This document shows positions 3,676 to 37,764 of a DNA stretch of 43,154 nt, piece after piece. The stretch lies in IMG/VR virus record IMGVR_UViG_3300032212_000035, positions 1 to 43,154 of that record; one strand, given 5' to 3'. The stretch comes from a virus (Duplodnaviria > Caudoviricetes). The notes below the pieces were generated by a model, which was given only the letters and a program-made list of their open reading frames with translations, did not search any database and had not been told where the DNA came from. How positions within the stretch are numbered: the first letter of the stretch is position 1; every line of letters starts with the position of its first letter. A program made the position numbers and the translations under genes.

Positions 3676-4611
3676 TTAAGTAAATATAATGGTTATTTCA
3701 TCATCACCGGCACTTTCAACAGCACCATATGGTATGTCATACGTTCTTATACCGTCTCGATCACCTGGTGTAATATCACGATAATATATAGCGGGCATTT
3801 GTACCTGATACCTATTTCCTGCGGTGCTGCCTATCACGCCTGTATCCATTAACATTTTTGTGCCAGATGTAAAATCACCTATAAAATCATTTTCCGCAAC
3901 CGAGGTCATTAAAGGATCAATAGTACCGTTAACATCACGATTTGTTATTGATACCTCCCCGTAACCATTGACCGCTGAAATTTGAGCTGGTGTAGTGACC
4001 TCTATGCCCATATCAATCGATATCGCATTCACTGCCGCAGAAAACCCACCTACTGTGAAATTAACACCCAGCAACGCGGGTGGTAGTGTCTGATCAAACA
4101 CAGCAGAAGCTGGAGCTGCCGCATCTGTTGGGTTTGATGAATGCCCTGTAAATGTGAAAGACAGCACACCATAATTACCGGTTTCTAAATTACCGGTAAC
4201 CGTACCTCGACACCCTGTTAATTTATGCACTAGCCCTTCATGGTAGAAATAAATCGTGCCTGATTCTTGTGTACTCGAGTCTGACACTACGTCATAGGTG
4301 ACTGATACACCTACTGCAATAGTTTCGGACATTGCGCACATACGCAGTAACACGCCAATTTCAGGCGGTGTACCCGCAACACCTGACCCCTTTAATTCAA
4401 CGTCAAAAGTAACGGACTTTAATGCACCCGCATAGACTTGTTGTTCTTTGCCAAGCGTTGGCTTTAACACATCGCGCTCTATCATGCGCAAGCCTTCATT
4501 AGACCATGACGCTGATTGAACTAGCACAGCATCACTTGCAGGTACTGGCAACGAATCAACACCATAACTCGTTTCAATCTTGGCCAGAATCACTTCACGA
4601 TTAAGCAGCAT
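3676..4611 (-). CDS. Major tail tube protein
   Basis: 311 aa; N-terminal ILAKIETSYGVD typical of tail tube proteins; synteny. Confidence 0.85.
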   Translation of the reverse strand: MLLNREVILAKIETSYGVDSLPVPASDAVLVQSASWSNEGLRMIERDVLKPTLGKEQQVYAGALKSVTFDVELKGSGVAGTPPEIGVLLRMCAMSETIAVGVSVTYDVVSDSSTQESGTIYFYHEGLVHKLTGCRGTVTGNLETGNYGVLSFTFTGHSSNPTDAAAPASAVFDQTLPPALLGVNFTVGGFSAAVNAISIDMGIEVTTPAQISAVNGYGEVSITNRDVNGTIDPLMTSVAENDFIGDFTSGTKMLMDTGVIGSTAGNRYQVQMPAIYYRDITPGDRDGIRTYDIPYGAVESAGDDEITIIFT

Positions 4612-7121: not shown

Positions 7122-7487
7122 TTATCGAAGAACGATAGCGGTACCGTCAAACGCAGCGTCTTTTTCTGGATCGGTATCAAAGCTCGCATGCCAGGTCATT
7201 TCCGATTTGCGGAAAGCGCCTGCTTTATAAATCACGCAAGCTTTATCTGCTGCCGTTGCATCAACAGCATGAACCATGATCCCGACCGGGGTTTGACTAC
7301 CATCAATGGCGGCGTTGTTACATTCCGTCAACTTTCCGCTGAGCGCGATACGACCAACCACTGCACCGCGAATCAGGTTTTGCCCCAGAATTAATATGCC
7401 AGGCTCATTCGCAATAGCAGGCGTATTGCTCGCAATTAAATTATCGTTAACGTGGACATCCACGATGGATTCTGCAAGTGGGCTCAT
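7122..7487 (-). CDS. Head decoration protein (gpD-like)
   Basis: 121 aa between protease and capsid; GQNLIRGAVVG...DGSQTPVGI motif. Confidence 0.9.
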   Translation of the reverse strand: MSPLAESIVDVHVNDNLIASNTPAIANEPGILILGQNLIRGAVVGRIALSGKLTECNNAAIDGSQTPVGIMVHAVDATAADKACVIYKAGAFRKSEMTWHASFDTDPEKDAAFDGTAIVLR

Positions 7488-7541
7488 AAGCCTATCTCCT
7501 GTATTAGATTAAATTTTAAAGTTAAATAGTAAAATTAAGAC

Positions 7542-7967
7542 TTACGATCTTTTTCCACGTGCTGAATTAAAATCGCCAAGTATTTTTTGAGCATCTGACA
7601 TTTCTGTATCACCATGGCCACCTTCAGCAGTCACACCCGTTTTGCCGACCTGTTCCATGGCTGCATCAAGTTTTGATGCGTCCTTTGCTGACACAGGCAG
7701 GTCTTCTAATGTAGCGATCACGTCTGCAGCGCTCATATCCGTCCCTGTTGCTAAGCGCACCGCGGCTTTCTCGCGTCCTTTCGCGGCATCACTTTCCATG
7801 ATGGCAGCAAATCGTTTATTGGCCGCAGCTGTTTGGTCACTACCTGAAACAGCCCTCTTACCTTTATCGGTTTCAACCGTTTCAGTTTCGTTGACGATAT
7901 CGGCATTGGTGTTCGTGCCGCCCTGATCTTCTGCCGAAGCATTCGGCTTTTCTTCTTTTTCACTCAT
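7542..7967 (-). CDS. Nested in-frame scaffolding protein (Nu3-like)
   Basis: Internal ATG (MSEKEEK...) preceded by GGAGA Shine-Dalgarno, as in lambda C/Nu3. Confidence 0.65.
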   Translation of the reverse strand: MSEKEEKPNASAEDQGGTNTNADIVNETETVETDKGKRAVSGSDQTAAANKRFAAIMESDAAKGREKAAVRLATGTDMSAADVIATLEDLPVSAKDASKLDAAMEQVGKTGVTAEGGHGDTEMSDAQKILGDFNSARGKRS

Positions 7968-23512: not shown

Positions 23513-23776
23513 AACGTGCGCAAAACGTCTGCAAGTATTTTTAAATAAGATAAGTGATTGAATATAAAGAAGAATATTATAAAAAGGTAAAGGTTCAAGT
23601 CCTCTTCTCGGCACCATTTAAATTTCTTTTAAATGGCCCTACACAGCAACCTTAAACACTACTATACAAGCATATCACTCCATTAACTTGCATTGCTTTC
23701 GGGGTCTAGTAGGGTCTGGAAAAGGTCTATAAAACGTCTGCAATTCGTCTGCAAAACGTGCGCGTTTCGTCTGCAA
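23512..23776 (+). repeat. attP arm-type repeats
   Basis: Six copies of CGT(CT/GC)GC on an 11-bp period: two at 23512-23534 and four at 23732-23776, flanking the core. Confidence 0.75.
23591..23616 (+). other. attP core = 3' end of a tRNA (probably tRNA-Leu)
   Basis: AGGTTCAAGTCCTCTTCTCGGCACCA: T-loop, acceptor 3' strand, discriminator A, CCA; no 5' half of the tRNA present. Confidence 0.88.
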
Positions 23777-25040: not shown

Positions 25041-25229
25041 TTAAAAGAACTTCTTTAATGTAGCTGGCAGCGATTCATACATCGACCTTTTCAGCCTCTT
25101 AATAGCCAGGCCAAGCTCGACCAGGCTCTCACCCATCGAGCCTTTTAACTCATTCCTTATTTGCTCATCACTAATGCCATCAGGCAATTCGTAGTATTTT
25201 CTGACTGCATTAATCGTTAATTGCTTCAT
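25041..25229 (-). CDS. Array gene, hypothetical
   Basis: 62 aa, preceded by junction motif. Confidence 0.7.
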   Translation of the reverse strand: MKQLTINAVRKYYELPDGISDEQIRNELKGSMGESLVELGLAIKRLKRSMYESLPATLKKFF

Positions 25230-25244
25230 AAGTACTTTCCGTGG

Positions 25245-25442
25245 TTAACCATCTAAATGCTTATCACGCGCCAAACCATCAACAAAAAATTGCAAGGCTT
25301 TGACCACTTGATCTCTGGTAGCGCCTTTATCAAGGCGAACTGCGTGATGCCTGTCATTATCAAAATCAACAATAAACTCAAAAAACTTTTCACTTTCTAC
25401 CCTAGTACTCATTCGAGCTTTTTCTAGTTTTTTTATACCCAC
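25245..25442 (-). CDS. Array gene, hypothetical
   Basis: 65 aa, GTG start after motif. Confidence 0.65.
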   Translation of the reverse strand: MGIKKLEKARMSTRVESEKFFEFIVDFDNDRHHAVRLDKGATRDQVVKALQFFVDGLARDKHLDG

Positions 25443-25454
25443 AACTTTTCTCCG

Positions 25455-25664
25455 TTAATTTTTATCGATTAACTCAACTGCTTTAAATCTCACATAAGTT
25501 ATATTACCATCGATCTTTATAACATCACCTCGATTCATTCCACTATTATCAGCCCAATCAATATCAATGATCATAGGTTGAAGCCCAATACTTTCACGTA
25601 TGGCATCAACAATAATCTGATCAAGCTCATCAAAACCAGTTACACCAGGTATTGTGATTTCCAT
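25455..25664 (-). CDS. Array gene, hypothetical
   Basis: 69 aa, preceded by motif. Confidence 0.7.
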   Translation of the reverse strand: MEITIPGVTGFDELDQIIVDAIRESIGLQPMIIDIDWADNSGMNRGDVIKIDGNITYVRFKAVELIDKN

Positions 25665-25909
25665 TAATAGTTTCCGTTTTTAACTCGATTTTCAATAGCC
25701 AGCCAGGTTGGCTCATACTCAGGCCAATCTTTCTCGACCACAACACAATCAACACATGCGCTCGCACCAGTATCAATGTCTGGTTGCTTTGCTAACGATA
25801 TAGCCATAATTATGTTTTCAAGCTTTTGTTTTGCCTCATCACTAAGATACTTATCAACATCTTTTCGTTTTAAAACGATATATCTGTTTTCTCGCACAAA
25901 ATCACTCAT
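25664..25909 (-). CDS. Array gene, conserved-looking phage hypothetical
   Basis: RENRYIVLKRKD...CVVVEKDWPEYEPTW. Confidence 0.75.
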   Translation of the reverse strand: MSDFVRENRYIVLKRKDVDKYLSDEAKQKLENIIMAISLAKQPDIDTGASACVDCVVVEKDWPEYEPTWLAIENRVKNGNY

Positions 25910-25921
25910 GGTCAGTTCCCG

Positions 25922-26221
25922 TTATTTAAAACCCATTTTTTCAGATACCGCATCGACTAACTTTTCTTTATCTCGATCAATGAAGTTACAGCCCATAGCT
26001 GCATCAATCTCATTATCAAGATCCTCACCATTCAAAACTAAATTATCCGGTGTTTTACCTGCGAACAGACCGCCGCTGTAAACCGCATTAATATCAGCAT
26101 TACGCAAATACTGATAACGTGCTGCATCTTTTTTAAATCTCTCATTTTCAGCCAGCATTTCAACCATTAACGAATCAAACTGCTCTGCGTTTTCTGTAAA
26201 TTTCTGTCTCAGATTTGACAT
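25922..26221 (-). CDS. Array gene, Ead-like hypothetical
   Basis: Start re-set to MSNLRQK after motif; KDAARYQYLR...LDNEIDAAM segment common in phage early proteins. Confidence 0.72.
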   Translation of the reverse strand: MSNLRQKFTENAEQFDSLMVEMLAENERFKKDAARYQYLRNADINAVYSGGLFAGKTPDNLVLNGEDLDNEIDAAMGCNFIDRDKEKLVDAVSEKMGFK

Positions 26222-26237
26222 ATCATTTTCCGTTAAG

Positions 26238-26447
26238 TTATAGACCTTTAAAATCAAGATCTTCTTGCTGCTTAAGTTTTAACAAATTCTCTTTGTCATA
26301 GTCACAAAAATCTGAACAATCCGCATCATCTAACCCCATATCCCTGCAGACATCAGCAGCCACTTTACACTGGTCATGAGTTGCCACCACCAACCCTATT
26401 GCAACTAAAGCGCCACGATCAAAATCATCAAGCTGTTTTTCTGGCAT
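26238..26447 (-). CDS. Array gene, hypothetical
   Basis: 69 aa, preceded by motif. Confidence 0.7.
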   Translation of the reverse strand: MPEKQLDDFDRGALVAIGLVVATHDQCKVAADVCRDMGLDDADCSDFCDYDKENLLKLKQQEDLDFKGL

Positions 26448-26466
26448 AATTGCTTTCCGTGTGTTT

Positions 26467-26553
26467 TTAATAACATAACCGGCGCTTACATCGCCGGCAA
26501 TGACGAATATAAGGATTAGTTTCTATAACCCCGCACATACAAATAATAACCAT
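26467..26553 (-). CDS. Array gene, 28-aa Cys-rich microprotein
   Basis: MVIICMCGVIETNPYIRHCRRCKRRLCY* between two motif copies. Confidence 0.6.
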   Translation of the reverse strand: MVIICMCGVIETNPYIRHCRRCKRRLCY

Positions 26554-26565
26554 AATCACTTTCCG

Positions 26566-26850
26566 TTAATTAATTTTTTCTAATACGTAACCAGGGACAT
26601 ATACCCTTTTTGGCCCGAAACCTTCAGCAATAAATTCAGACTCAGGCCATTCTGCAATATTCACACCTGGACTTGTACAGTACTCAGTGAAGACAACGCC
26701 GTCTTTGACATCAACTACACGATAAAGCTCTAAATCAGCTCGACTGGTCGTATAGTAATCACCAGCTTTAGGTTTCCATTCAAGCTCTTCGTAAAACCTT
26801 GCCGCTAATGCATGCAGTTTTTGCTGTTCTGTTAGTTTTTCATATTGCAT
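26566..26850 (-). CDS. Array gene, hypothetical
   Basis: MQYEKL...WKPKAGDYYTTSRADLELY; preceded by motif. Confidence 0.72.
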   Translation of the reverse strand: MQYEKLTEQQKLHALAARFYEELEWKPKAGDYYTTSRADLELYRVVDVKDGVVFTEYCTSPGVNIAEWPESEFIAEGFGPKRVYVPGYVLEKIN

Positions 26851-26852
26851 AA

Positions 26853-27044
26853 TCACTTTCCGCGTATGTTTTCTATATTAGAAATAACAACCGTTTTTAA
26901 ATTATCCTGCACATTTACAGACAGCACCGGATAACTCTTATCTTTAATTAAAATACCATGGCCCTTGCAGATTAAATGCAGGAAATCTTTCCCTCTGTAT
27001 ACCTCGTTACCACTCTGCAGCACTACCAGATCCAGATCATGCAT
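26853..27044 (-). CDS. Array gene, hypothetical
   Basis: MHDLDL...; preceded by motif variant. Confidence 0.65.
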   Translation of the reverse strand: MHDLDLVVLQSGNEVYRGKDFLHLICKGHGILIKDKSYPVLSVNVQDNLKTVVISNIENIRGK

Positions 27045-27056
27045 AATCATTTTCCA

Positions 27057-27398
27057 TTAAGTTGTTTCACTAACTGTTTTTTCAGATTTACTCCAAGCTG
27101 CCTCAATAATTACGAAGTGAATCAAGTAGAATAGGCCTGTGACCCAAGCACCGAACCAGACAAATACGGCAGTCACAGATAGATCATATAATGCACTAGC
27201 CCAGGACGGCACAGATCGTTTTTCTTTTGCCATTTTATCAATGACCTCATCCGAAAACATGAATAACGATAATACTATCGAGGACCATGCAATAAAATAT
27301 GCAATGTTTTTTGCGCCATCAATACCATCTATAAATCCCAAATATATCGCTATTGCAAATACGATATTTAGCAACCACCATTTAATCTTTTTATTCAT
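27057..27398 (-). CDS. Array gene, multi-TM membrane protein
   Basis: 113 aa with 3-4 hydrophobic segments. Confidence 0.75.
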   Translation of the reverse strand: MNKKIKWWLLNIVFAIAIYLGFIDGIDGAKNIAYFIAWSSIVLSLFMFSDEVIDKMAKEKRSVPSWASALYDLSVTAVFVWFGAWVTGLFYLIHFVIIEAAWSKSEKTVSETT

Positions 27399-27410
27399 TT
27401 ATGTTTTCCG

Positions 27411-27620
27411 TTATACGTTCAACGCATCAAAAGCAGCTTTCCAGACAACAGGCTGCAGTTCTCTATATCCACTATCTTTGCCAAATTCATCCTTGTGCTT
27501 TTTCAAGCCCACTAAACCTGCCAGTGCATTTCTATAACGGTCATTTTCTTCGAGCATTTCAACCATTAATGAATCAAACTGCTCAGCGTTTTCAGTAAAC
27601 TTTTCTCTTAATCCACTTAT
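27411..27620 (-). pseudogene. Array gene with ATA in place of ATG; N-terminus paralogous to 25922-26221
   Basis: (I)SGLREKFTENAEQFDSLMVEMLEENDRYRNALAG...AFDALNV*. Confidence 0.6.
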
Positions 27621-27632
27621 TTGTTTTCCATG

Positions 27633-27917
27633 TTAATTAATCTGACTGGTGACAAACCCAACATACGGAAAGTCACCAGCTCTAAATTTCGTCAGTTTCC
27701 ATCGATAATGTTCAGCACAGCTTTTAAGATGATCATAATTAAATACATCAATCTCAACCGACGCACCTTTATGCATCACCTGAACATCACGAAGCTCTTC
27801 AACAGTCTTGACCAAGCCATTTTCTACAACTCTAAAATCGCCGTGCCGTTCATGAATCACCGAAAACTTAAAACCTTCCTGCAACTCATCAGCCAAAATA
27901 TATGTTCTAGATCCCAT
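27633..27917 (-). CDS. Array gene, hypothetical
   Basis: 94 aa, preceded by motif. Confidence 0.7.
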   Translation of the reverse strand: MGSRTYILADELQEGFKFSVIHERHGDFRVVENGLVKTVEELRDVQVMHKGASVEIDVFNYDHLKSCAEHYRWKLTKFRAGDFPYVGFVTSQIN

Positions 27918-27935
27918 AGTCAGTTTCCGTCGTTA

Positions 27936-28217
27936 TCAATCTGTTGTTTCAAAATGTCGCTGCAACTGATTTTTTTCAATATATGAAGTCCAGTCACAAC
28001 CGCTGCCAGGCTGATGATTTGCTGTCAAGTGACCAATCATCACAGATATATTCAATGACTCTATAACGCTCAGATCATCTTTTGGATTTAAGGCATACCT
28101 CTTACCATCATGATTGAGAAAGATAATCTGGCCTACCTGCATCGGCGAAAACACTATCTGACCAGCCTGAGCGCTTTCAGCATTAATTGTGGTTGCAGAA
28201 ATATTTTTATTTGTCAT
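27936..28217 (-). CDS. Array gene, hypothetical
   Basis: 93 aa, preceded by motif. Confidence 0.7.
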   Translation of the reverse strand: MTNKNISATTINAESAQAGQIVFSPMQVGQIIFLNHDGKRYALNPKDDLSVIESLNISVMIGHLTANHQPGSGCDWTSYIEKNQLQRHFETTD

Positions 28218-28408
28218 TTATGCTTTCCGTTAAATTCTGCCTGTAAACCAGGTATTAAAATATCTTTAACCATATCATCAGTCACCGCGCCAGAAATATT
28301 GATAATGATAGTTTCATCTTTATCAGGACAACACACAGGACACGGAACAATCGGACCATTATTATCCATTTCGATCTGCCTAGTATTATCGCAATAACTA
28401 CAATCCAT
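28214..28408 (-). CDS. Array gene, Zn-finger-like hypothetical
   Basis: MDCSYCDNTRQIEMDNNGPIVPCPVC. Confidence 0.7.
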   Translation of the reverse strand: MDCSYCDNTRQIEMDNNGPIVPCPVCCPDKDETIIINISGAVTDDMVKDILIPGLQAEFNGKHK

Positions 28409-28426
28409 AATCACTTTCCGTTATTT

Positions 28427-28768
28427 TTACTGTGTTCGAGTGTCGAAGTACTCAACTACATTATCGTCATACCACTGTTGAGCTGTTTTTTTATCGGGAT
28501 TATCCGGAAGGTGTCCAGGTCCTTCTAAACCGTTTTCTATCCAATCCATTGCGTTATCAGTCTTACCAGCAGCATGCGCTATGTATGCAGACTGATTAGC
28601 AACAACCATGTTATGTATTATCTGATTACCAAATAACAACTGACCTTTAAGCTTTTCAATAGCATCTGCAGCATCTTTGAATAAGCTATCGCTCTCACCA
28701 GTCAGGTTACTACTGGTCTTTTGTGATTGCCTTAATCTATGTATTAATTCATCCATCATGTTTTCCAT
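28427..28768 (-). CDS. Array gene, hypothetical
   Basis: 113 aa; VANQSAYI...AMDWIENGLEGPG. Confidence 0.72.
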   Translation of the reverse strand: MENMMDELIHRLRQSQKTSSNLTGESDSLFKDAADAIEKLKGQLLFGNQIIHNMVVANQSAYIAHAAGKTDNAMDWIENGLEGPGHLPDNPDKKTAQQWYDDNVVEYFDTRTQ

Positions 28769-28776
28769 AGTTAATT

Positions 28777-29094
28777 TTAAACAGGCCTAATCGCCTCCCC
28801 CCAATACAACTGGCTATATATCAGAGCAAACGACATATCAAACTCATCACCTTCACCTATAACCATTTGAATCAAGCCAGTATCATCAACTGAAAGCTCA
28901 ATATACTGCTTACTACCGACAACCTGTCCGTCCTCAACCTGAAAATCCTTCTTTGGCTCGATACCTATTGTCGCTGAATACTGATCGTCATCGTCAACAA
29001 GAACCTCACTAAACTCTATATTGAAATATTTTTCATGCCCAGACATAACGTCTTTAACATACTTAACAAGCGCTTCTTCTGTGTGATAACCCAT
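28777..29094 (-). CDS. Array gene, acidic hypothetical
   Basis: 105 aa, Asp/Glu-rich. Confidence 0.7.
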   Translation of the reverse strand: MGYHTEEALVKYVKDVMSGHEKYFNIEFSEVLVDDDDQYSATIGIEPKKDFQVEDGQVVGSKQYIELSVDDTGLIQMVIGEGDEFDMSFALIYSQLYWGEAIRPV

Positions 29095-29112
29095 AATTAT
29101 TTTCCGCGTTTA

Positions 29113-29337
29113 TTATCTTTGAATTTCAACAACCATTTTTGCCGCCTTAACCTCATCGACGTTAAACGACCACACATCTTCCTTATAGTCATTAGGGTCA
29201 AGCACTTCAATACCGCCCTGCTCATATGATTGCACAGGACCATCCGGCAATGCCGCAATAAGGTTCTCCAATATCTCCTTATCTTCATCTGTCTCAGCGA
29301 GAAACTGACACCCCCACCATGCTGTTGCTAATTTCAT
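29113..29337 (-). CDS. Array gene, acidic hypothetical
   Basis: MKLATAWWG...; preceded by motif. Confidence 0.68.
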   Translation of the reverse strand: MKLATAWWGCQFLAETDEDKEILENLIAALPDGPVQSYEQGGIEVLDPNDYKEDVWSFNVDEVKAAKMVVEIQR

Positions 29338-29339
29338 AA

Positions 29340-29663
29340 TCATTTTCCGTCAGTTTTAGCAGGCATTCTGCCACATATAAATTGAGCCGCCTCCGCTTGT
29401 ATTGCGCACTCAGATGCAGACTTGTACGCACCTAGCTCAAGAAAATTTTTTGCGGTTCCAGCCATTCTATGTTCGAAGTTTTCCATCTCTAACCTGTACG
29501 CCTCCCAGCGCTCAAGCCGATCTGTATCGACCATATCCTTTATCGCTAATTCAATTTCTTTTAATTTCTCAGACAGCCACGAACCCTCATCCATGCTATT
29601 ACCATTATCCGCAGCCTCTTCAGCTATCTCAGAAATTAAATCCATACAGTGCTTAATGGTCAT
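29340..29663 (-). CDS. Array gene, hypothetical
   Basis: 107 aa, preceded by motif. Confidence 0.7.
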   Translation of the reverse strand: MTIKHCMDLISEIAEEAADNGNSMDEGSWLSEKLKEIELAIKDMVDTDRLERWEAYRLEMENFEHRMAGTAKNFLELGAYKSASECAIQAEAAQFICGRMPAKTDGK

Positions 29664-29681
29664 TTATGCTTTCCGTTGTTT

Positions 29682-31037
29682 TCAGGCCGCTTTCGCTACC
29701 TGGTTAGTTTTCATATTCGCCTCAACTAGTGCCTGAGCGATTGGTGGACACACCGCATTACCACATCGAGCAACCTGACTGGCTTTTGATAATTTCTTAC
29801 CGCTACTATCGTGACTAATCACATAATCCTCAGGAAAACCCTGAGCAGCAAACAACTCATGCGGCTCCAGCATTCGCATTCCAATATCAATCACTTCATA
29901 CCCTACACCCTGAACCGTAACTAAGGCAAAGCGATCTTTCGTGGTGATAGTGTGTAGCGGCTCTTCACAACTTAAACCGATGTTAGGGCCGTAATACTTC
30001 ATCATAAACGCCCTAACCTCACCCTCATTCATAACATGATCATCCATATCGCATTGCTTTTTAAAATAAGGCTTTATCAATAAATGCTCCGCCTTACTGG
30101 TCACCGTTGTTAATGGCTGGTTAATACTCCAAGACAATCTATCGCCACCGAAACCCGTTTGACCGATACGAACAATAAACGGCGACGCACTGCCCAGGAC
30201 AAACTTTTCGACACCTTTAGCAATTCGTTTCATAGTGTTTTCTGCTAATGGTTTTTTACGATTAAAAATCGATCTAACTGGCACCTGCCAATCAATAATA
30301 TCTGCAGCTGTTCTGTATGGCTCCAAACCACTACCCGCCGGGCCGTGTGTTTTCTGTGGCCACTGTATAGGCTCATTATCATTTCTAGCCATAAGGAAAA
30401 AGCGTTTACGTGTTGTAGGTGCGCCATAGTCACAGGCAGACAGCACTTTATAATCAACCTGATAGCCAAGACCTTTAAACAGTTTTAGTTTTGCACTGAT
30501 ATCAAACTCAATATCCAGCACCTGACACATTTCTTTCCAAGTCGGATGGCGAGGCGTGATACCAGTTGTTAACGCCTTAATAAAACCATCGTACGTTTCA
30601 CCCTTTCGCTTTTTGCAAGGCATGTATTTGCCGGGAGGCTCCTCAACTACTGGACCCCACGTTAAAAACTCCTCAACGTTCTCCAGCGCAAATACCCTCA
30701 CTGGTACAAGCATTGCCCAACGAACGGCCACCCAGGCTAAGCCACGAATATTTTTATCTACCGGTGTACAACCGCGCGCCTTTGTAAAGTGCTTACAATC
30801 AGGTGAAAACCAGGCAAAGCCGACAGGCAACCCCATACACGCAACAATAGGATTTACATTCCAAACCGACTCGCAGTAGTGTTTTGCTTCTGGGTGATTC
30901 ACCTTATGCATATCAATAGCAACTGGGTCATGATTAATCGCTATATCTACGTGACGATTTAAACCTAATTCTATGCCAGTGCTTGCACCGCCACCGCCCG
31001 CAAAATTATCCACAACTAACTCACCTGGTCTAAGCAT
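29682..31037 (-). CDS. DNA cytosine-5 methyltransferase (orphan, phage type)
   Basis: DNFAGGGG (motif I), SPDC (IV), ENV (VI), YGAPTTRKRFF (VIII), GNAV (X). Confidence 0.95.
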   Translation of the reverse strand: MLRPGELVVDNFAGGGGASTGIELGLNRHVDIAINHDPVAIDMHKVNHPEAKHYCESVWNVNPIVACMGLPVGFAWFSPDCKHFTKARGCTPVDKNIRGLAWVAVRWAMLVPVRVFALENVEEFLTWGPVVEEPPGKYMPCKKRKGETYDGFIKALTTGITPRHPTWKEMCQVLDIEFDISAKLKLFKGLGYQVDYKVLSACDYGAPTTRKRFFLMARNDNEPIQWPQKTHGPAGSGLEPYRTAADIIDWQVPVRSIFNRKKPLAENTMKRIAKGVEKFVLGSASPFIVRIGQTGFGGDRLSWSINQPLTTVTSKAEHLLIKPYFKKQCDMDDHVMNEGEVRAFMMKYYGPNIGLSCEEPLHTITTKDRFALVTVQGVGYEVIDIGMRMLEPHELFAAQGFPEDYVISHDSSGKKLSKASQVARCGNAVCPPIAQALVEANMKTNQVAKAA

Positions 31038-31066
31038 CCCGGAACCCTTTTATCTTTTTCAGTTTT

Positions 31067-31834
31067 TCAGGCTGCTTTCGCAACCACCTTCACAGGAATA
31101 CCAGTTATTTCTTCAAGCGTTCTTGGCGACTCACCTTTCCTTGGCATCATCATTGTATGATCAACCTCTTGCTCTAACGCTACATACTCAGCATACAATT
31201 CTGGGTTTATACGCGCCGCAGTATTTAAATCAGCTTTATTACTCATTATGCAAAAACAGCATGATAATCTGGACATTCCAGCCTCATACGCCCAGTGCGG
31301 ATCTTCGCCAGCGTCTTTTATAGTAGAAAACACCTTATCAACTAACCAGCTATGAATTGGTAACCAGTCATACCACTCTCGACCTGCTTTTGAATTACGC
31401 TCATTAAATTTAAATACCTGCTGTTTAGCTCGACTGGTTGACTCTTCAGCCCTTAGCCCCATACAGTTCACAACTAAACCTGATAATTTATTTTCCTTGA
31501 TGTAGTGCCGTATGGTTTTTTCAATAGGACCACGCTTAAGATCACTAGTGCATTGACGATATGAAGGACTAGGAAACATCTGGCGATGACGAACCATTTC
31601 AAAGAATGTTTTTTTAGCCTGACACTGCCTTAATTCGTAGCCCTTGGTAGTTTCCTGAACATGCTCCCAGGTCCCCTCCCACTCAACACCTGGAAGATGC
31701 GCATGCACAACCATAATTTGATTTTTCGGAACCAATTGACGGATCTTAATCATCATCGCCTGAGAATCCTTTCCACCTGAGTGATTTACAACAAATAAAG
31801 CATTTCTTGCTATTAATTCGTCAATTGTAGGCAT
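31067..31834 (-). CDS. PAPS-reductase family protein
   Basis: SGGKDS PP-loop, RQCTSDLK, GLRAEES..RA, RLSCCFC. Confidence 0.92.
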   Translation of the reverse strand: MPTIDELIARNALFVVNHSGGKDSQAMMIKIRQLVPKNQIMVVHAHLPGVEWEGTWEHVQETTKGYELRQCQAKKTFFEMVRHRQMFPSPSYRQCTSDLKRGPIEKTIRHYIKENKLSGLVVNCMGLRAEESTSRAKQQVFKFNERNSKAGREWYDWLPIHSWLVDKVFSTIKDAGEDPHWAYEAGMSRLSCCFCIMSNKADLNTAARINPELYAEYVALEQEVDHTMMMPRKGESPRTLEEITGIPVKVVAKAA

Positions 31835-31854
31835 TATAGATTTTTCCTTAGATG

Positions 31855-32002
31855 TGTTTACCGTGTAAACAATATAGCAATTAATGTTTACCGTGTAAAC
31901 AGATAATTCAATTTAATTTCGATCGTTTACCGTGTAAACATTATTTTATCGCTTGCTGTTTACCGTGTAAACAATAGATGCTATATTTTGTTTACACGGT
32001 AA
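31855..32002. promoter_or_regulatory. Five palindromic operators overlapping two divergent promoters
   Basis: TGTTTAC-CGT-GTAAACA at 31855, 31885, 31924 (1 mismatch), 31957 and an inverted partial copy at 31989; TTTACA-N17-TATATT (minus) and TTTACC-N17-TATATT (plus). Confidence 0.85.
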
Positions 32003-32043
32003 TAAATGATAGGATTCGGCTTTTGAATACAGAGCAAATAGAG

Positions 32044-32268
32044 TTGGCGCAGACAAGCAAACAACGCAAGGACGCCATCGCAAAGGCCCGTAAGGCCCAC
32101 CACAAAGCCCAGACGCTAGATAAAAAGCGTCTGGATGCCTATGTGGAAGAAGGCACCAAAGAGGGCCTTAAACGCATCAAGGCCGAATTCGAGGATGTAA
32201 AAAACGAAGGCCAAGCCGTGGATAAAGCCGTGCAAATCGCCCTCGAAACCCTCGAAGAAAAAGACTAA
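32044..32268 (+). CDS. Small putative ribbon-helix-helix repressor
   Basis: KKRLDAYV strand plus two helices; start uncertain (TTG 32044 or 32022); downstream of operator array. Confidence 0.6.
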   Translation: MAQTSKQRKDAIAKARKAHHKAQTLDKKRLDAYVEEGTKEGLKRIKAEFEDVKNEGQAVDKAVQIALETLEEKD

Positions 32269-32286
32269 AAAAAGTGTAAATAAGTG

Positions 32287-32315
32287 TTGACTGCCGCCCC
32301 ATTGGGGCGTATATT
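32287..32315 (+). promoter_or_regulatory. Promoter with palindromic operator in spacer
   Basis: TTGACT-N17-TATATT; CGCCCCA-T-TGGGGCG at 32295-32309. Confidence 0.8.
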
Positions 32316-32365
32316 AATACTCAACGGCAAGGCATCCCGCCCAGCCATAACAACCGGAGAAATCC

Positions 32366-32812
32366 ATGTTTTCACTTCAAGAAACCCTAATCATCAACCA
32401 AGCAAAAAGCATCATTGCTGATAAGCTTATCAGTGGCAATGCCTTCACATCACCTGACGCAGTAAAAGATTTCTGTCTGTTAGAAATCGGTCACCTTGAG
32501 CACGAAGTTTTCGCAGTCATGTTTTTAAACCAGCGCCATCAAATGATCGCCTTTACAGAAATGTTTCGTGGCACCATCGATGGCGCAAGTGTTTACCCTC
32601 GCGAAGTGGCAAAGGCCGCGCTTGCTCAAAACGCCGCAGCGGTGATTTTTTCACACAACCACCCAAGTGGTGTAACTGAGCCATCCATGGCTGATGAGCG
32701 CATTACACGTCGCCTGATTGATGCATTAGGGCTGTTTGATATCCGCGTACTGGATCACATTGTGGTTGGCAAAAACGCTGCCACCTCCTTTGCGGAACGC
32801 GGGCTGCTGTAG
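32366..32812 (+). CDS. radC: RadC-like JAB-domain protein (mobile-element short form)
   Basis: EHEVF, FRGTIDGASVYPREV, HNHPSG...PSMAD, VLDHIVVG. Confidence 0.95.
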   Translation: MFSLQETLIINQAKSIIADKLISGNAFTSPDAVKDFCLLEIGHLEHEVFAVMFLNQRHQMIAFTEMFRGTIDGASVYPREVAKAALAQNAAAVIFSHNHPSGVTEPSMADERITRRLIDALGLFDIRVLDHIVVGKNAATSFAERGLL

Positions 32813-32824
32813 CAGCCCCACCCC

Positions 32825-32853
32825 GTGGGTGAGCCGGTTAACGGTTCACCCAC
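32825..32853. other. Intergenic hairpin
   Basis: GTGGGTGAGCCG-gttaa-CGGTTCACCCAC. Confidence 0.6.
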
Positions 32854-32880
32854 TTAACTGGATTAACAGGAGATAGCACC

Positions 32881-33213
32881 ATGTCAGAAAATGCCGCCAG
32901 CTATAACGCGGGTTCATTGCCTGAAACCCTCGACGCCTTTAAAAATAGAGATTGCGCCAGACTGTACACTGACGAACACTACAGGCCGCCTGAGCCTGAA
33001 GAAGTCAACCAGCTAATTACACTTAGCGGGTGGTCGCAAAATGATGCCGCCAAGCTCGTGGGCGTTAAATGGGACACCAAAAAAGGCTCATCCACAATTC
33101 GCAAATGGAAAAGCAACAAGGCGAAAAAAGACTATCGGGAGATCCCTTATAGTGCCTGGCGTTTAATGCTGATCTATGCCGGCGTGGTCGGTACCGAAAA
33201 CAACCTGGTGTAA
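32881..33213 (+). CDS. KorC-like HTH transcriptional repressor
   Basis: PPEPEEV...GWSQNDAAKLVGV...STIRKW...IPYSAWRLM resembles IncP KorC. Confidence 0.7.
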   Translation: MSENAASYNAGSLPETLDAFKNRDCARLYTDEHYRPPEPEEVNQLITLSGWSQNDAAKLVGVKWDTKKGSSTIRKWKSNKAKKDYREIPYSAWRLMLIYAGVVGTENNLV

Positions 33214-33300
33214 CCTGGTACCTGGTTTCTTTTCATGAAAAGGTCACAATAAATATCAATAACTTACGTGTTTTTTGAGCATCTATTCTTTTCCGTGGAT

Positions 33301-33555
33301 TTATTTACCGTTAAAATGCCTGGCGATTTCAACAAGCGACATATCAGATTCAGGCTCACACATCGATGTATCACCTGGGTTCAGCTTTAGATAGCTGATC
33401 AGGTGAGGCCGAATCGCGGCCTCAACGGTCAAACCCCGCAGCATAGTGATGCGGGGCTGACAATCAGCGAAATACACATGCAGCTCATCATCATTGAGCA
33501 GATACTGCACCGTGTACGCTTTACCGTTATGCGCTATTATGATTTCATCATTCAC
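33301..33555 (-). CDS. Array gene, hypothetical
   Basis: 84 aa, GTG start after motif. Confidence 0.65.
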   Translation of the reverse strand: MNDEIIIAHNGKAYTVQYLLNDDELHVYFADCQPRITMLRGLTVEAAIRPHLISYLKLNPGDTSMCEPESDMSLVEIARHFNGK

Positions 33556-33560
33556 TTAAA

Positions 33561-33824
33561 TTATTCCGTTGCTTTAGCTATGTCACCGTATTCGTTTTCT
33601 AACACTATGTTGTGACCTTTATGCATAGCTAAAAATTCAATTGGGTCCACATCATAATGAGCAGTGCCCATGACATGTATATCCAACATAGAACACTTAT
33701 CCCTGGCATCACTTAACACACTACCAAGGGAGTAAACCTGGCGTAGTGTAGCCTCACCATGATTCAAATAGTGTTCACTGCTTACACCGCAATCCTCGCA
33801 CTTATAACCCCAATGTGTTGACAT
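33561..33824 (-). CDS. Array gene, Zn-binding hypothetical
   Basis: YKCEDC...FLAMHKGHNIVLENEY. Confidence 0.72.
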   Translation of the reverse strand: MSTHWGYKCEDCGVSSEHYLNHGEATLRQVYSLGSVLSDARDKCSMLDIHVMGTAHYDVDPIEFLAMHKGHNIVLENEYGDIAKATE

Positions 33825-33837
33825 AATTCTTTCCGAT

Positions 33838-34017
33838 TTACTCTACAGGCGAATGTATAACAGCGTCTAGTTTCATTTTCTGCAAAATGATAGCCGGGGT
33901 GAGCAACATCGCATTTACGGGATTACCAGATCTAGCCTCTATCAATAATCCGGTTAACTTCGTTGTTTCCTGAATAACTGTAAGCGTTTTTTGCTTTGCT
34001 TTTTTATCTAGTTCCAT
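33838..34017 (-). CDS. Array gene, hypothetical (59 aa, not in ORF track)
   Basis: MELDKKAKQKTLTVIQ...IHSPVE* between two motif copies. Confidence 0.65.
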   Translation of the reverse strand: MELDKKAKQKTLTVIQETTKLTGLLIEARSGNPVNAMLLTPAIILQKMKLDAVIHSPVE

Positions 34018-34030
34018 AATTCCTTCCGTT

Positions 34031-34231
34031 TTAAACCTGGTTAATCTCTAAATGAGCATCACCAGGCGACTTAATGCTTGGCGAACATGGCGCTGCGATA
34101 ATTGTATTTAACTGAGCCATAGACATCATAGCACCAACAACATCACCCGCTTCAGTCTGAGCTTTCATTGTCACCTTCAACTTATCAACCTGGGCCTGCT
34201 TTGCTAGCTTAAGTATTGTTTCAGTATCCAT
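34031..34231 (-). CDS. Array gene, hypothetical
   Basis: 66 aa, preceded by motif. Confidence 0.68.
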   Translation of the reverse strand: MDTETILKLAKQAQVDKLKVTMKAQTEAGDVVGAMMSMAQLNTIIAAPCSPSIKSPGDAHLEINQV

Positions 34232-34272
34232 AATTTTTTCCGTTATTTATACTTAATCAGCTAGTACACAAC

Positions 34273-35460
34273 TTAAGACCCACTATTTGATAATGGAAAC
34301 GTACTTATTTCTGGAAACCCTTCAGACAATTCAACAACCCAATCCCCATACTCATCAGTTAATATATATGTAATATCACCAAATAATGATGGATCAAAAT
34401 GAGGTGGTTTAACTCCTGTTTCAGACTCTCGCCCAATCGAATACACATATCTATTTACAATATAACTTACAACATCAGCCAGCTCTAAATACAAACTTTC
34501 TGTGGGGGTAACAAACACCGGGCTCTTAACTGGTAATCCTCTTGTAAGGTATGCCCATAAAAGCGTCAACCGAAAGCCCTTAAATAAATTCTTCGCCCAT
34601 CCGTCATCTCCTGTTCTTTCAAAGTAAAACTTAGGAGACAATCCACTATTTGAAAACTCTCTAATTATTTGCATTAATGCAGAATTATATATACCACTCT
34701 GACATTCTTTTTTTACCTTATCTTTCAGATTTACTCCACTTTTTACTCCAACAGCAGTATAAATCTTTATTTTTCCATCTAAATTATATTCACGTATTAA
34801 TTTTAGTAGTTCTTTTAACTTGTTTATAATAAATTCACTTTTATTATGCTTCAAATATTCGATTGAATTCCTTTTATCTTTATGGAGAATCTCCATCATA
34901 TGAAGCACCCAGTTTTTAGGATCAATGGATGGAGCCAGGGAATTTTTAATACTATGAAATCGTCTTTCAAACTCATTTTTATCTTTTTCATCACCTAAAA
35001 ATGACACAAATGAATATGTAAATATAGTATTCCCACAAACGACGCTCGATGCTTCATCACCATAAACGTCAACTTCACCTTGATAACCGGAAGAAGGAAT
35101 TCCAAAAGAAATCTTATCGCCGCACTCTTCACACTCTATTTCACAACTAGAATATCGTAACAAACCTCTTTCTTCACAATAGAATACTGCAACTGGATAC
35201 CTTTTCGTAACCCATTCTGGAACAAATCTATGTCCATTAGAACATGTGACAGTAATTCCTAACAGCTCTTCAGGCACATGCTTTGTTTCTACTAATGTTT
35301 TATCATATATTTTTTTACTCAAAAATATACATGATTCCTTATTAATCCAATGACTACGATCTAGACCCAAATCACGAACAAGATCATTTATATTGTCATA
35401 GCTACTTTTAAGCTGGCGAAATTTCTTAGCCTTATTATGACTAGACTTATTAGCCATCAA
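34273..35460 (-). CDS. AT-rich protein with Zn-ribbon and DUF3800-like (RNase H-like) domain
   Basis: CSNGH/CEEC, VYGDEAS, LELADVVSY motifs. Confidence 0.6.
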   Translation of the reverse strand: MMANKSSHNKAKKFRQLKSSYDNINDLVRDLGLDRSHWINKESCIFLSKKIYDKTLVETKHVPEELLGITVTCSNGHRFVPEWVTKRYPVAVFYCEERGLLRYSSCEIECEECGDKISFGIPSSGYQGEVDVYGDEASSVVCGNTIFTYSFVSFLGDEKDKNEFERRFHSIKNSLAPSIDPKNWVLHMMEILHKDKRNSIEYLKHNKSEFIINKLKELLKLIREYNLDGKIKIYTAVGVKSGVNLKDKVKKECQSGIYNSALMQIIREFSNSGLSPKFYFERTGDDGWAKNLFKGFRLTLLWAYLTRGLPVKSPVFVTPTESLYLELADVVSYIVNRYVYSIGRESETGVKPPHFDPSLFGDITYILTDEYGDWVVELSEGFPEISTFPLSNSGS

Positions 35461-35505
35461 AAGGCTTCCGCAGCAATCGCACCAAGGCCACTTATCCTCA
35501 CTTAA

Positions 35506-35718
35506 CTACCTCCCCTTATTAACGTTATCATCCTTTGAGTTATCAGGATTATCTCTCACGTATTTTTGATCATTTACTTTAACCACGTGAGCATCAGGGT
35601 GCTTGCCGTTTTCAACCTCCTTAACAACTGTTTTTCTCGGCACATTTTTCCTTTTCCCGATGTTATAAGTCTCATTACGACCACCTGGACCGTCATTGTT
35701 TCCTCTGATTTTGGTCAT
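35506..35718 (-). CDS. Small DUF3892-like protein
   Basis: VVKEVENG...HVVKVNDQKYVRDNPDNSKDDNV; GGGGAG RBS. Confidence 0.65.
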   Translation of the reverse strand: MTKIRGNNDGPGGRNETYNIGKRKNVPRKTVVKEVENGKHPDAHVVKVNDQKYVRDNPDNSKDDNVNKGR

Positions 35719-35849
35719 TTCACATACTCCCCCAAGTAATAGGCTTATGCCTAAAACACAAGATATAGTATTGGGTATTTCAGGTCAATACCTTATGTCG
35801 TATTAAATAACTAAATTAATGTATTGATAAACTACAATAATGCCCGGTT

Positions 35850-36518
35850 TTAGCAAACCTCATTAAACATCTCAATCAACCTATCCATAGAGATATCAAC
35901 ATAATCAAGCGTAGTTTGTGGGTCATCATGCCCCAATATCCTAGCCATCTGATCAAGCGTCCTGCCCTGCCTGATAATCGAGTTAGTCACCATTGATTTA
36001 CGCCCACTATGGCTGCTCGCATCCTTCAGGCCAGATTTTTTATATATCTCTCTGATACTGTGCTCTAACGCATCACTAGCTCTATAAGACTTAACCGTTC
36101 CATCCATTAATACTCGAGTCTTTTCAGTGAGCGCATAAGGCCTGCCACGATTATTAAATAAAAGTTTACTATCAGGATTTAGAGTTTGATAACTATCATC
36201 ATTTGGCATTGTTCCCCAGCGCCTCTTAATTCTGTAATCAATCCATTCCTGAATGATTTGCCTCGTTAGCTTATTGGTTAGCCAAATAGTACGCGGCTTA
36301 AGCCCCTTGCATATTGCTGCAGGTAAATGAATCTCTTCTCTGATAGCGCCCGATGGATAAAGAACAGTTTTAGTCTGTAGCCTGGCAACCTCAGATACTC
36401 TCATTGCCGCATGACTTAATACCAATGCACAGCGTTTACCTTCACTATGAGTCATTAGATTACAAACTTTTAATACATGTTTTATTTGTGCTGATGATAT
36501 TGCTATTGCTTTACTAAT
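35850..36518 (-). CDS. Second tyrosine recombinase, catalytic domain only (~222 aa, putative ATT start)
   Basis: AMRVSE, ICKG, SSHSGR, ILGH, TLDY catalytic set; frame stays open to ATT at 36516-36518 behind AAGGAG. Confidence 0.9.
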   Translation of the reverse strand: MSKAIAISSAQIKHVLKVCNLMTHSEGKRCALVLSHAAMRVSEVARLQTKTVLYPSGAIREEIHLPAAICKGLKPRTIWLTNKLTRQIIQEWIDYRIKRRWGTMPNDDSYQTLNPDSKLLFNNRGRPYALTEKTRVLMDGTVKSYRASDALEHSIREIYKKSGLKDASSHSGRKSMVTNSIIRQGRTLDQMARILGHDDPQTTLDYVDISMDRLIEMFNEVC

Positions 36519-36601
36519 TGTATGTATACTCCTTAAAAATTCGAATATACGGACAATGCTTTTTCAGCATCACCTTATTCGTTTATAACATGATTTATAA
36601 A

Positions 36602-36618
36602 GACTTCCACGGAAAGTC
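36602..36618. other. Imperfect palindrome containing the array motif, upstream of recombinase
   Basis: GACTTCCACGGAAAGTC. Confidence 0.6.
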
Positions 36619-36723
36619 CGTGAGTCTCATCAGTTACTGTGTGACATAGGGATTTTTCCCACATACAGCAATTAAAATATTTGTTATCGTGTCACGCATA
36701 ACAACTATATAGGGATGTAAGCG

Positions 36724-37275
36724 GTGAACAAGCTCCTACTATTAATATGCTTATTCGTTTTTCAGAGCTGCTCAAATATGCCTGGTATGCCGGGCCATAT
36801 TACCGAAAGCACCTCAAAATTTGATGGTAGAAAAACACTGGCGATGGAACCGGCCTGGCTCTACAACACCACCAGTTTAAAGCTAGGCTTGTACAAAGAT
36901 AGCACCCTTCCCAAAGATAAAGTCATCCTCACCGCGGTTGCAGTCGGCGCACACGCCATTTCCCCAGGCAAGTCTTTGAAATTCAATATTGACAATGAAA
37001 CGGTCGCCCTTAAAACCCATCAGCAACTGACCCATATAAAAACAACCGCTGGTACACATGGATATGTCCGTTCCCACGAAGGCGCACACGCGCGTAGCTA
37101 TAACGCTTCATCCAAAGACTACCTGGTGGATATCACCTTCATAAAACGCATCCTTAAAGCTGAAAACGTCGCAGTGAGGCTGGACTTTAGAAACTCTTAC
37201 GCAGAAGGCATCTTCTCCCACGATGGAATATCCCTTGCGCGGCCAGCGTTCAACAATTTTATGAAAAAACTATAA
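36724..37275 (+). CDS. Lipoprotein moron
   Basis: Signal peptide with lipobox FQSC; opposite orientation to tail genes. Confidence 0.8.
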   Translation: MNKLLLLICLFVFQSCSNMPGMPGHITESTSKFDGRKTLAMEPAWLYNTTSLKLGLYKDSTLPKDKVILTAVAVGAHAISPGKSLKFNIDNETVALKTHQQLTHIKTTAGTHGYVRSHEGAHARSYNASSKDYLVDITFIKRILKAENVAVRLDFRNSYAEGIFSHDGISLARPAFNNFMKKL

Positions 37276-37308
37276 AGCCCTTACCACAATACGGAGCATA
37301 TTAGGAAA

Positions 37309-37764
37309 ATGCGTTTTTTAATTTTACTGTTGACAGTGCTATCAACCAGTTGCACTAAGGACGACCCAAGCGATAATAATCACGGTTTTGGGTTTGATGT
37401 AGACGCTGTTGATAGCACCACCGGCATTTCTGTTAAGTATAATGAAGCAGATACTTTTCAATTTCCAATAGAGTTGATAGTCGAGACATATCACATCACT
37501 GAAAACTGTTTAGGCCTTTATAGCGATAAAGGCCCGCCTGTTATAATCACGAACAACAGCAACAACCTTATTATAAATGGCGTGCAATTTAGCGGTTATT
37601 TTTATCACTCACCACCACTCGTGGTAGTCCATGACGGCTTACTATCAATGAACGATACATTCAGACTCGAGCATGAATTCATACACTATTTATTGCAAGC
37701 CAACGGTCAAAACCCTAACCACACGGAAGAGAATCAAATTTTGTTTGATCGTTGCTCGATTTAA
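37309..37764 (+). CDS. Lipoprotein with HExxH zincin motif
   Basis: MRFLILLLTVLSTSC lipobox; LEHEFIHYLL...NH. Confidence 0.75.
   Translation: MRFLILLLTVLSTSCTKDDPSDNNHGFGFDVDAVDSTTGISVKYNEADTFQFPIELIVETYHITENCLGLYSDKGPPVIITNNSNNLIINGVQFSGYFYHSPPLVVVHDGLLSMNDTFRLEHEFIHYLLQANGQNPNHTEENQILFDRCSI

Follow-up and report, generated by a model that had tools for sequence, protein, structure and literature searches.

The DNA stretch considered here raises the question of how small co-oriented genes come to be joined, one after another, by the same short motif beside a small recombinase gene. The stretch is a single virus record (IMGVR_UViG_3300032212_000035; Duplodnaviria, Caudoviricetes) of 43,154 bases that encodes head and tail proteins and an arm-domain integrase and includes an immunity region; its full length is called the window below. 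The locus in question is placed between the phage att site and a large tail-fibre-like gene and comprises a second tyrosine recombinase (YR), an inverted copy of the motif upstream of the YR gene (the left site) and an array of small genes (Table 1). Other loci compared with it are labelled L followed by a number. The reading preferred here, with a probability of about 0.7, is that of a cassette system other than an integron, in which the YR would recombine sites of about 9 bp resembling ribosome-binding sites (RBS) and in which ordinary gene junctions could be captured. The system is probably undescribed. No description of such a system was found in the open PMC and bioRxiv literature, subscription journals lying outside the scope of the search.

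The hexamer CGGAAA occurs 26 times in the window, and 16 of the copies are on the minus strand between 25.0 and 34.3 kb (binomial p 6e-10), an enrichment over the rest of the window that an earlier reading of this DNA without database searches (the sequence-only reading) had anticipated. The sequence AAYGGAAANNNATWATG has three exact matches in the window and none in 100 shuffles. Among 22 small minus-strand genes (18 at 25041-29663 and 4 at 33301-34231), 19 have (C/T)GG(A/G)A(A/G) 5-6 nt before the start; in a twentieth (27617) the motif stands before ATA in place of ATG, and the remaining two have looser variants. The motif-joined array proposed earlier is thus real. It does not form one run, a 3.6-kb block of helix-turn-helix-like (HTH-like), RadC, repressor-like, phosphoadenosine-phosphosulfate-reductase-like (PAPS-reductase-like) and C5 methyltransferase genes splitting it in two. 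The core phage genes start differently, as had also been claimed: CGGAAA-N5/6-ATG was found at 0/47 hand-listed non-array starts, and among automatically called non-array ATG genes (n = 43) GGAAA lies upstream of 7 and YGGRAA of 2. The proposed junction, TAA-CGGAAA-N5-8-ATG, keeps its core, with the spacer narrowed to 5-6 nt and the stop codon directly before the core at 5 junctions only; elsewhere the upstream stop lies from about 16 nt before the core to inside or after it. Intergenic gaps of the array range from -4 to 20 nt. The idea that one site serves as stop, RBS and start was given up because the stop position varies and a separate RBS follows the motif in L008 and L028. Motif positions beyond +3, the right-hand TTA included, are not conserved, which leaves the suggested likeness to the R''/R' cores of attC without support; a candidate reading of the site as a full palindrome (TAA-core-TTA) was dropped on the same ground. 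Every array site in the window is on one strand, and the trailing site of array A has no gene behind it. Almost none of the small array genes has a named family; a role of these genes in defence was considered and dropped, a weak DpdH match being obtained for one of the seven array genes scanned. Two array genes have an N-terminal stretch of 80 nt in common (26130-26209 and 27529-27608, 83% identical), and the copy at 27617 starts with ATA, not ATG.

Both the second YR and the inverted copy upstream of it (36610, plus strand), pointed out in the sequence-only reading, were confirmed. Residues R37, K68, H167, R170, H194 and Y203 are invariant in 67 sequences, and the AlphaFold2 model (pLDDT 94) has the YR fold with the catalytic domain alone; by these R-K-H-R-H-Y residues and this fold the protein belongs to the tyrosine recombinase superfamily. 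The structures nearest to the model are XerA, IntI4 and the Tn1549 Int, at 17-20% identity. The family is compact, with 46 clusters at E<=1e-30 among 1.84 billion representatives. Matches are present on 182 of 72,556 plasmid records, in 5 close viral loci and on metagenome contigs, and in only 2 of 401 genomes of a Shewanella order sample. Records of cultured phages gave none (0/50,697 by tblastn), and a single-protein viral scan gave no result. The hosts of the family are proteobacterial plasmids and phages, and the plasmid matches overturned the notion of a phage-specific system. In the phage loci L004, L005 and L007 the YR lies within an early operon, the upstream junctions carrying repeated motifs of their own. 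The YR unit is often found behind umuDC/rulAB genes (L047, L051, L060, L068, L069). In L058 (9515-16636) the YR is closely followed by an operon of the cyclic-oligonucleotide-based antiphage signalling type (CBASS) that includes HTH/metallopeptidase regulators and is not bounded by the motif.

The layout is constant across the family, with an inverted site, the YR and co-oriented short genes, and motif-punctuated arrays of differing genes follow the recombinase in relatives as the sequence-only reading had envisaged. The junction core in reverse complement, TTTCC(G/C/T), lies about 97 nt upstream of the YR in 34/39 family loci versus 3/14 loci with a distant YR. The left-site consensus spans -8 to about +2, and homology between relatives stops just outside it. 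A leader fold over the RBS of the YR is predicted in nine family members with differing stem sequences (z -0.6 to -3.4; -3.0 in the window). With the window's own contig and six near-duplicates dropped, GGAAA precedes 76 of 191 small downstream genes within 4.5 kb versus 25 of 325 upstream or opposite-strand controls in the same 35 loci, and the share drops to about 10% beyond 4.5 kb. Loci with a distant YR have GGAAA before 6/32 genes, and viral loci picked by one motif match (79 loci) before 79/812. In the reverse test, no YR was found in 82 motif-picked viral loci among the matches listed, which were not host-matched; one of them had three junction-like copies. The left sites of L005, L007 and L027 depart from GGAAA, and a terminator-like hairpin stands directly before the left site in several Shewanella loci. 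In L061 a minus-strand gene lies between two left-type sites (7250-7890), an apparent exception to the downstream geometry. The left site as the attI of a divergent array was a candidate and was dropped, no enrichment being found upstream (minus-strand genes upstream 4/82).

The base beside the core varies together in the left site and in the array, giving C-, G- and A-types. In a Vibrio clade the left site is TTTTCCCC and the junctions are GGGGAAA; in the window's clade they are TTTCCG and CGGAAA, and the A form occurs in two loci. The junction base agrees with that of the left site at 17/21 G-type, 38/64 C-type and 3/3 A-type junctions, with 3/13 and 5/13 in controls, and the match per locus is 0.68 versus 0.34 when permuted (26 loci). 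One replicon cluster of Vibrio plasmids includes both C- and G-types (L053 versus L061), which speaks against the host as the cause of the match. In L203 (2509-2520) a G-type left site stands alone, no recombinase following it. The orphan array of L075 is preceded by a 50-bp recombinase remnant (3707-3756), and the same plasmid bears an intact YR of the other subtype about 14 kb off.

Near-identical cassettes (98-99.5%) stand beside differing neighbours, with breaks at the core. L047 and L051 are 99% identical save for an insertion of two genes precisely at ACGGAAA; a 207-bp cassette, 99.5% identical in L047, L051 and L060, has three different neighbours; and L034 diverges from L047 three bases past the core. 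Across G-type loci, GAGGGAA links MazEF to three different genes, and three cassettes reappear in new surroundings. The IncC locus L078 has cassettes in common with L062 and L059, and its cassettes are 93% identical to Vibrio and Shewanella copies. Over 22 array regions, 39 of 52 alignment ends fall at most 8 nt from a loosely defined core, versus 24% expected at random. The crossovers range from about the fourth core base to +3/+4. In L047, L051 and L060 two backbone sites flank the YR and array; between the same sites the YR-less plasmids L204 and L205 have a single cassette. Shewanella baltica OS195 has plasmids of both kinds, one with the YR and one without it. Related units exchange flanks at the left site; the two empty alleles found have their breaks not at the left site but at a direct site farther upstream or in the repeats of another element, and no empty site for a unit running from left site to right site was found among the alleles compared. 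The relatives' arrays and the indel breakpoints at the motif, which had been predicted, support an integron-analogous capture and shuffling system, and we infer from these comparisons that the YR is the recombining enzyme.

The locus nearest to the window is L020 (74% YR identity), with the same YR, repressor block and operators and a different array; it is without the 2.3-kb block found behind the YR of the window. In L021 the YR is joined via one site straight to the repressor gene. In L074 (5189-5527) the fusion point of a site lies 17 nt within another cassette gene, and a third cassette follows, giving a chimeric ORF. Three joints among metagenome contigs concern the methyltransferase/RadC region, have short sides and probably belong to other organisms; no motif joints were found among these contigs, which is no evidence, as contigs lose rare variants. 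In L028 (9054-13290) and L053 a transposase-less element with terminal inverted repeats of about 20 bp and an 8-9 bp duplication carries the whole YR unit, and its empty site is present in L199 and L200; an IS1595-like nature of the ends is a lead only. Transposition driven by the YR was dropped as an explanation of these two loci, the unit being bounded by another element.

Several observations weigh against a YR-driven cassette system. The YR of the window has no ATG start, its start codon being ATT, versus ATG in all 40 relatives checked. No close relative of the window phage was found with common cassettes at the DNA level; the breakpoints were taken from plasmid relatives with YR identities of 46-56%, and movement of site-bounded units, a trait of integrons, is seen in relatives and not in the window's own array. 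The 52 alignment ends are not independent and the core is loosely defined, 13 of the ends lie elsewhere, mid-gene fusions included, and the crossover spread of about 8 nt is broader than a strict site would give. The covariation comes from few lineages and is weak in the betaproteobacterial loci L066, L067 and L070. The family loci L006, L022, L023, L025, L054 and L058 are without an array, and the provirus L002 (81% complete) contains two motif junctions but lacks a YR. The whole unit of L028 and L053 does not need the YR to move, as it is enclosed by another element, which is bounded by terminal inverted repeats. Neither recombination nor binding nor circles were observed.

In the cassette system as proposed, the YR would recombine short (C/A)ACGGAAAG-type sites between downstream genes and would thereby excise, insert and reorder single-gene cassettes. 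Recombination between two direct-repeat sites, by cuts staggered about the 3' end of GGAAA, would release a circle able to re-enter at another site; the spread of the crossovers fits a short overlap resolved either way, and it fits microhomology too. Stop-start gaps that hold GGAAA by chance (8-16% of control genes) may act as cryptic sites. Since the core is like a Shine-Dalgarno sequence, natural junctions would supply such sites, and the units captured would be entire genes with hardly any spacer. Such capture could proceed without an attC-like structure, the site often doubling as the RBS of the next gene. A self-repressed promoter module at the head would drive the cassettes (a repressor and operators in the window, toxin-antitoxin operons on many plasmids) and might fire upon entry into a new host. 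The inverted site would be a second strong half-site, serving as the left end of the YR unit, as an operator, or as both. The ATT start and the leader hairpin of the window's copy would together hold its enzyme low or silent. A broader proposal is put forward tentatively, at slightly less than even odds: proteobacterial plasmids and phages may possess a second, independent gene-capture platform, a minimal tyrosine recombinase with an RBS-mimicking site of about 9 bp by which whole genes are lifted from ordinary operons and stacked, translation-ready, behind a self-repressed promoter. If this is true, cassettes would be made de novo, a step unexplained for integrons.

Phage-borne integrons and clusters of attC sites lacking integrases (CALINs) are covered in the parts of PMC9892861 drawn on here. 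As in integrons, a tyrosine recombinase stands beside co-oriented, mostly single-gene units swapped at a junction site, and orphan arrays without a recombinase exist. The attC hairpin sites of integrons measure about 55-140 bp, whereas the junctions here do not exceed 20 nt, which leaves no room for attC, and have no Rfam match. The YR is without the core-binding domain and scores 26.5 bits against the integron-integrase model TIGR02249 (cut-off 265); the Xer cut-off is also far from reached. Integrons have attI upstream and a divergent array, whereas here the array lies downstream of the YR on the same strand, and the site, unlike theirs, is RBS-like. The system is not an integron, as IntI, attC and geometry all fail, and the sequence-only reading was right that neither IntI nor attC is visible. 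Strand-biased circularizing integrative elements (SE) have four core genes and ends of about 19 bp according to the relevant sections of PMC10214605 and PMC10782965. The present family has, in contrast, a single gene encoding 222 aa, and its right site is repeated many times internally; neither SE core genes nor an arm-binding integrase with an excisionase were found, a single small YR standing in all gene maps. Shared with SE and with YR transposons of the Tn916/Tn554 type are the YR gene at the left end, the imperfect inverted ends and the mixed inheritance of a few bases beside the end. Promoter-early-stem-loop (PeSL) cassettes of T4-type phages are units of a promoter and a stem-loop of about 100 bp, with no dedicated recombinase identified in the portions of PMC2839356 that describe them. 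In both cases a variable phage region has ORFans delimited by recurrent junction elements that coincide with indels, but the present junctions are short, and no excess of promoters or terminators was found. The pdif modules of Acinetobacter plasmids are recombined by host XerC/D at 28-bp sites in alternating orientation; in both cases short recombinase sites bound accessory plasmid modules, often toxin-antitoxin (TA) pairs, but here the enzyme is encoded in cis and the sites point one way. Invertases of the FimB/FimE type and shufflons use catalytic-domain YRs of about 200 aa on 9-bp inverted repeats; the present YR is a similarly small catalytic-domain enzyme, but the invertase model does not match it and inverted cassettes are rare (GGAAA before 4/99 downstream minus-strand genes). 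By the features tested, the system is not an SE, a PeSL or a shufflon.

The RBS-like core, which precedes 7/43 ordinary window genes, and the spread of the crossovers would also suit an explanation that is unlikely overall, namely that the motif is a translation-start linker, that homologous or single-strand-annealing recombination by host, phage or plasmid functions at microhomologies shuffles the genes in a PeSL-like manner, and that the YR is a passenger with the upstream copy as its operator. The motif junctions without a YR in L002 and a lambda-exonuclease gene near one locus are in line with it, and PeSL shuffling is ascribed to homologous recombination in the pertinent part of PMC2839356. 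However, PeSLs offer about 100 bp of homology according to that part, against 5-9 bp here. Left unexplained by microhomology are the match of array sites to the inverted site of the adjacent YR subtype, the decay of the motif with distance from the YR, and the sites that stand before a separate RBS or before no gene.

An improbable reading, ranked below microhomology, takes its lead from the TA pairs directly after the YR in L055, L059, L061, L065, L068, L070 and L071, which recall the classic layout of a resolvase beside its own site plus a TA, as in resD/ccd of the F plasmid. The YR would then be a multimer resolvase of the replicon acting at the inverted site in a stability module, and the arrays would be by-products of relaxed specificity, not a capture system maintained by selection. 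The array sites nevertheless number up to about 20 and all point the same way, opposite to the upstream site; the YR is entirely missing from closely related plasmids, and it is also borne by integrating phages with their own integrase. Least probable is a regulatory site, either for an RNA-binding protein of the CsrA/RsmA ANGGA type or associated with starts, that co-regulates an early operon and involves no recombination. ACGGA does fit ANGGA and overlaps the RBS, and the spacing of 5-6 nt in the window is constant, but the G-type arrays have GGGGAAA, the upstream copy is on the non-transcribed side of the YR gene, and breakpoints gather at the core.

A YR-driven cassette system would explain the rows of small hypothetical genes on Vibrio, Shewanella, Pseudomonas and Burkholderiales plasmids and on phages. 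It would also offer a testable route to single-gene cassettes. The array genes would form a pool of likely host-interaction genes for screening, as with integron arrays; the cassettes reach IncC plasmids (L078), and a 222-aa recombinase with natural variants of site specificity is of mechanistic interest. A tyrosine recombinase beside blaGMA-1 on plasmid p1 was stated not to be an integron integrase in the passages of PMC10782965 concerned with it, and there the acquisition mechanism was left unresolved. Plasmid p1 is the record of L073, and its recombinase is a member of the YR family. The gene blaGMA-1 as a cassette of the YR system was a candidate and was dropped; it is inverted behind the YR, and no clear bounding sites were seen in its flanks.

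Table 1. Features of the cassette locus and its surroundings in the window.
Feature	Position	Strand	Remark
Tyrosine recombinase (YR), catalytic domain only, 222 aa	35850-36518	-	Pfam PF00589
5' leader of YR	36519-36575	-	predicted fold over YR RBS (folding prediction)
Inverted left site ACTTCCACGGAAAGT	36602-36618	+	97 nt upstream of YR start, beside predicted promoter
Array A, 4 small genes	33290-34250	-	sites 34242, 34028, 33835; trailing site 33295
Array B, 18 small genes	25041-29680	-	motif sites, mostly without family matches
Array B sites, first part	29675, 29349, 29106, 28767, 28420, 28229, 27929, 27630, 27410	-	
Array B sites, remainder	27056, 26862, 26565, 26459, 26232, 25921, 25676, 25241	-	
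PAPS-reductase-like gene and C5 DNA methyltransferase	29682-31834	-	head array B
At least four TTTAC-N-GTAAA palindromes, likely operators	31855-32002		overlap promoter-like -35 boxes facing array B
Ribbon-helix-helix-like repressor gene	31978-32268	+	Atlas lead RHH_1, score 0.92
RadC/JAB gene	32366-32812	+	Pfam RadC
Small HTH-like gene	32881-33213	+	part of repressor block
DUF3892-like (70 aa) and DUF3800 (about 400 aa) gene pair, low GC	34273-35718	-	Pfam
Arm-domain integrase of the phage itself	22325-23512	+	not part of cassette system
att core, presumably tRNA-3'-end-like	23592-23616	+	after integrase, phage context only

The repressor/RadC/HTH-like block is also found behind the YR in L020, and the repressor alone also in L021, L027 and L053. 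A promoter scan of the window was overall at chance level. The DUF3892 assignment has a score slightly below the Pfam cut-off, and the DUF3892-like/DUF3800 pair is missing from the related phage locus L020 (blastn). Two lipoprotein-like genes on the plus strand (36724-37764) separate the tail-fibre-like gene from the left site; in the related loci L020, L021, L032 and L035 their place holds other, co-oriented genes.

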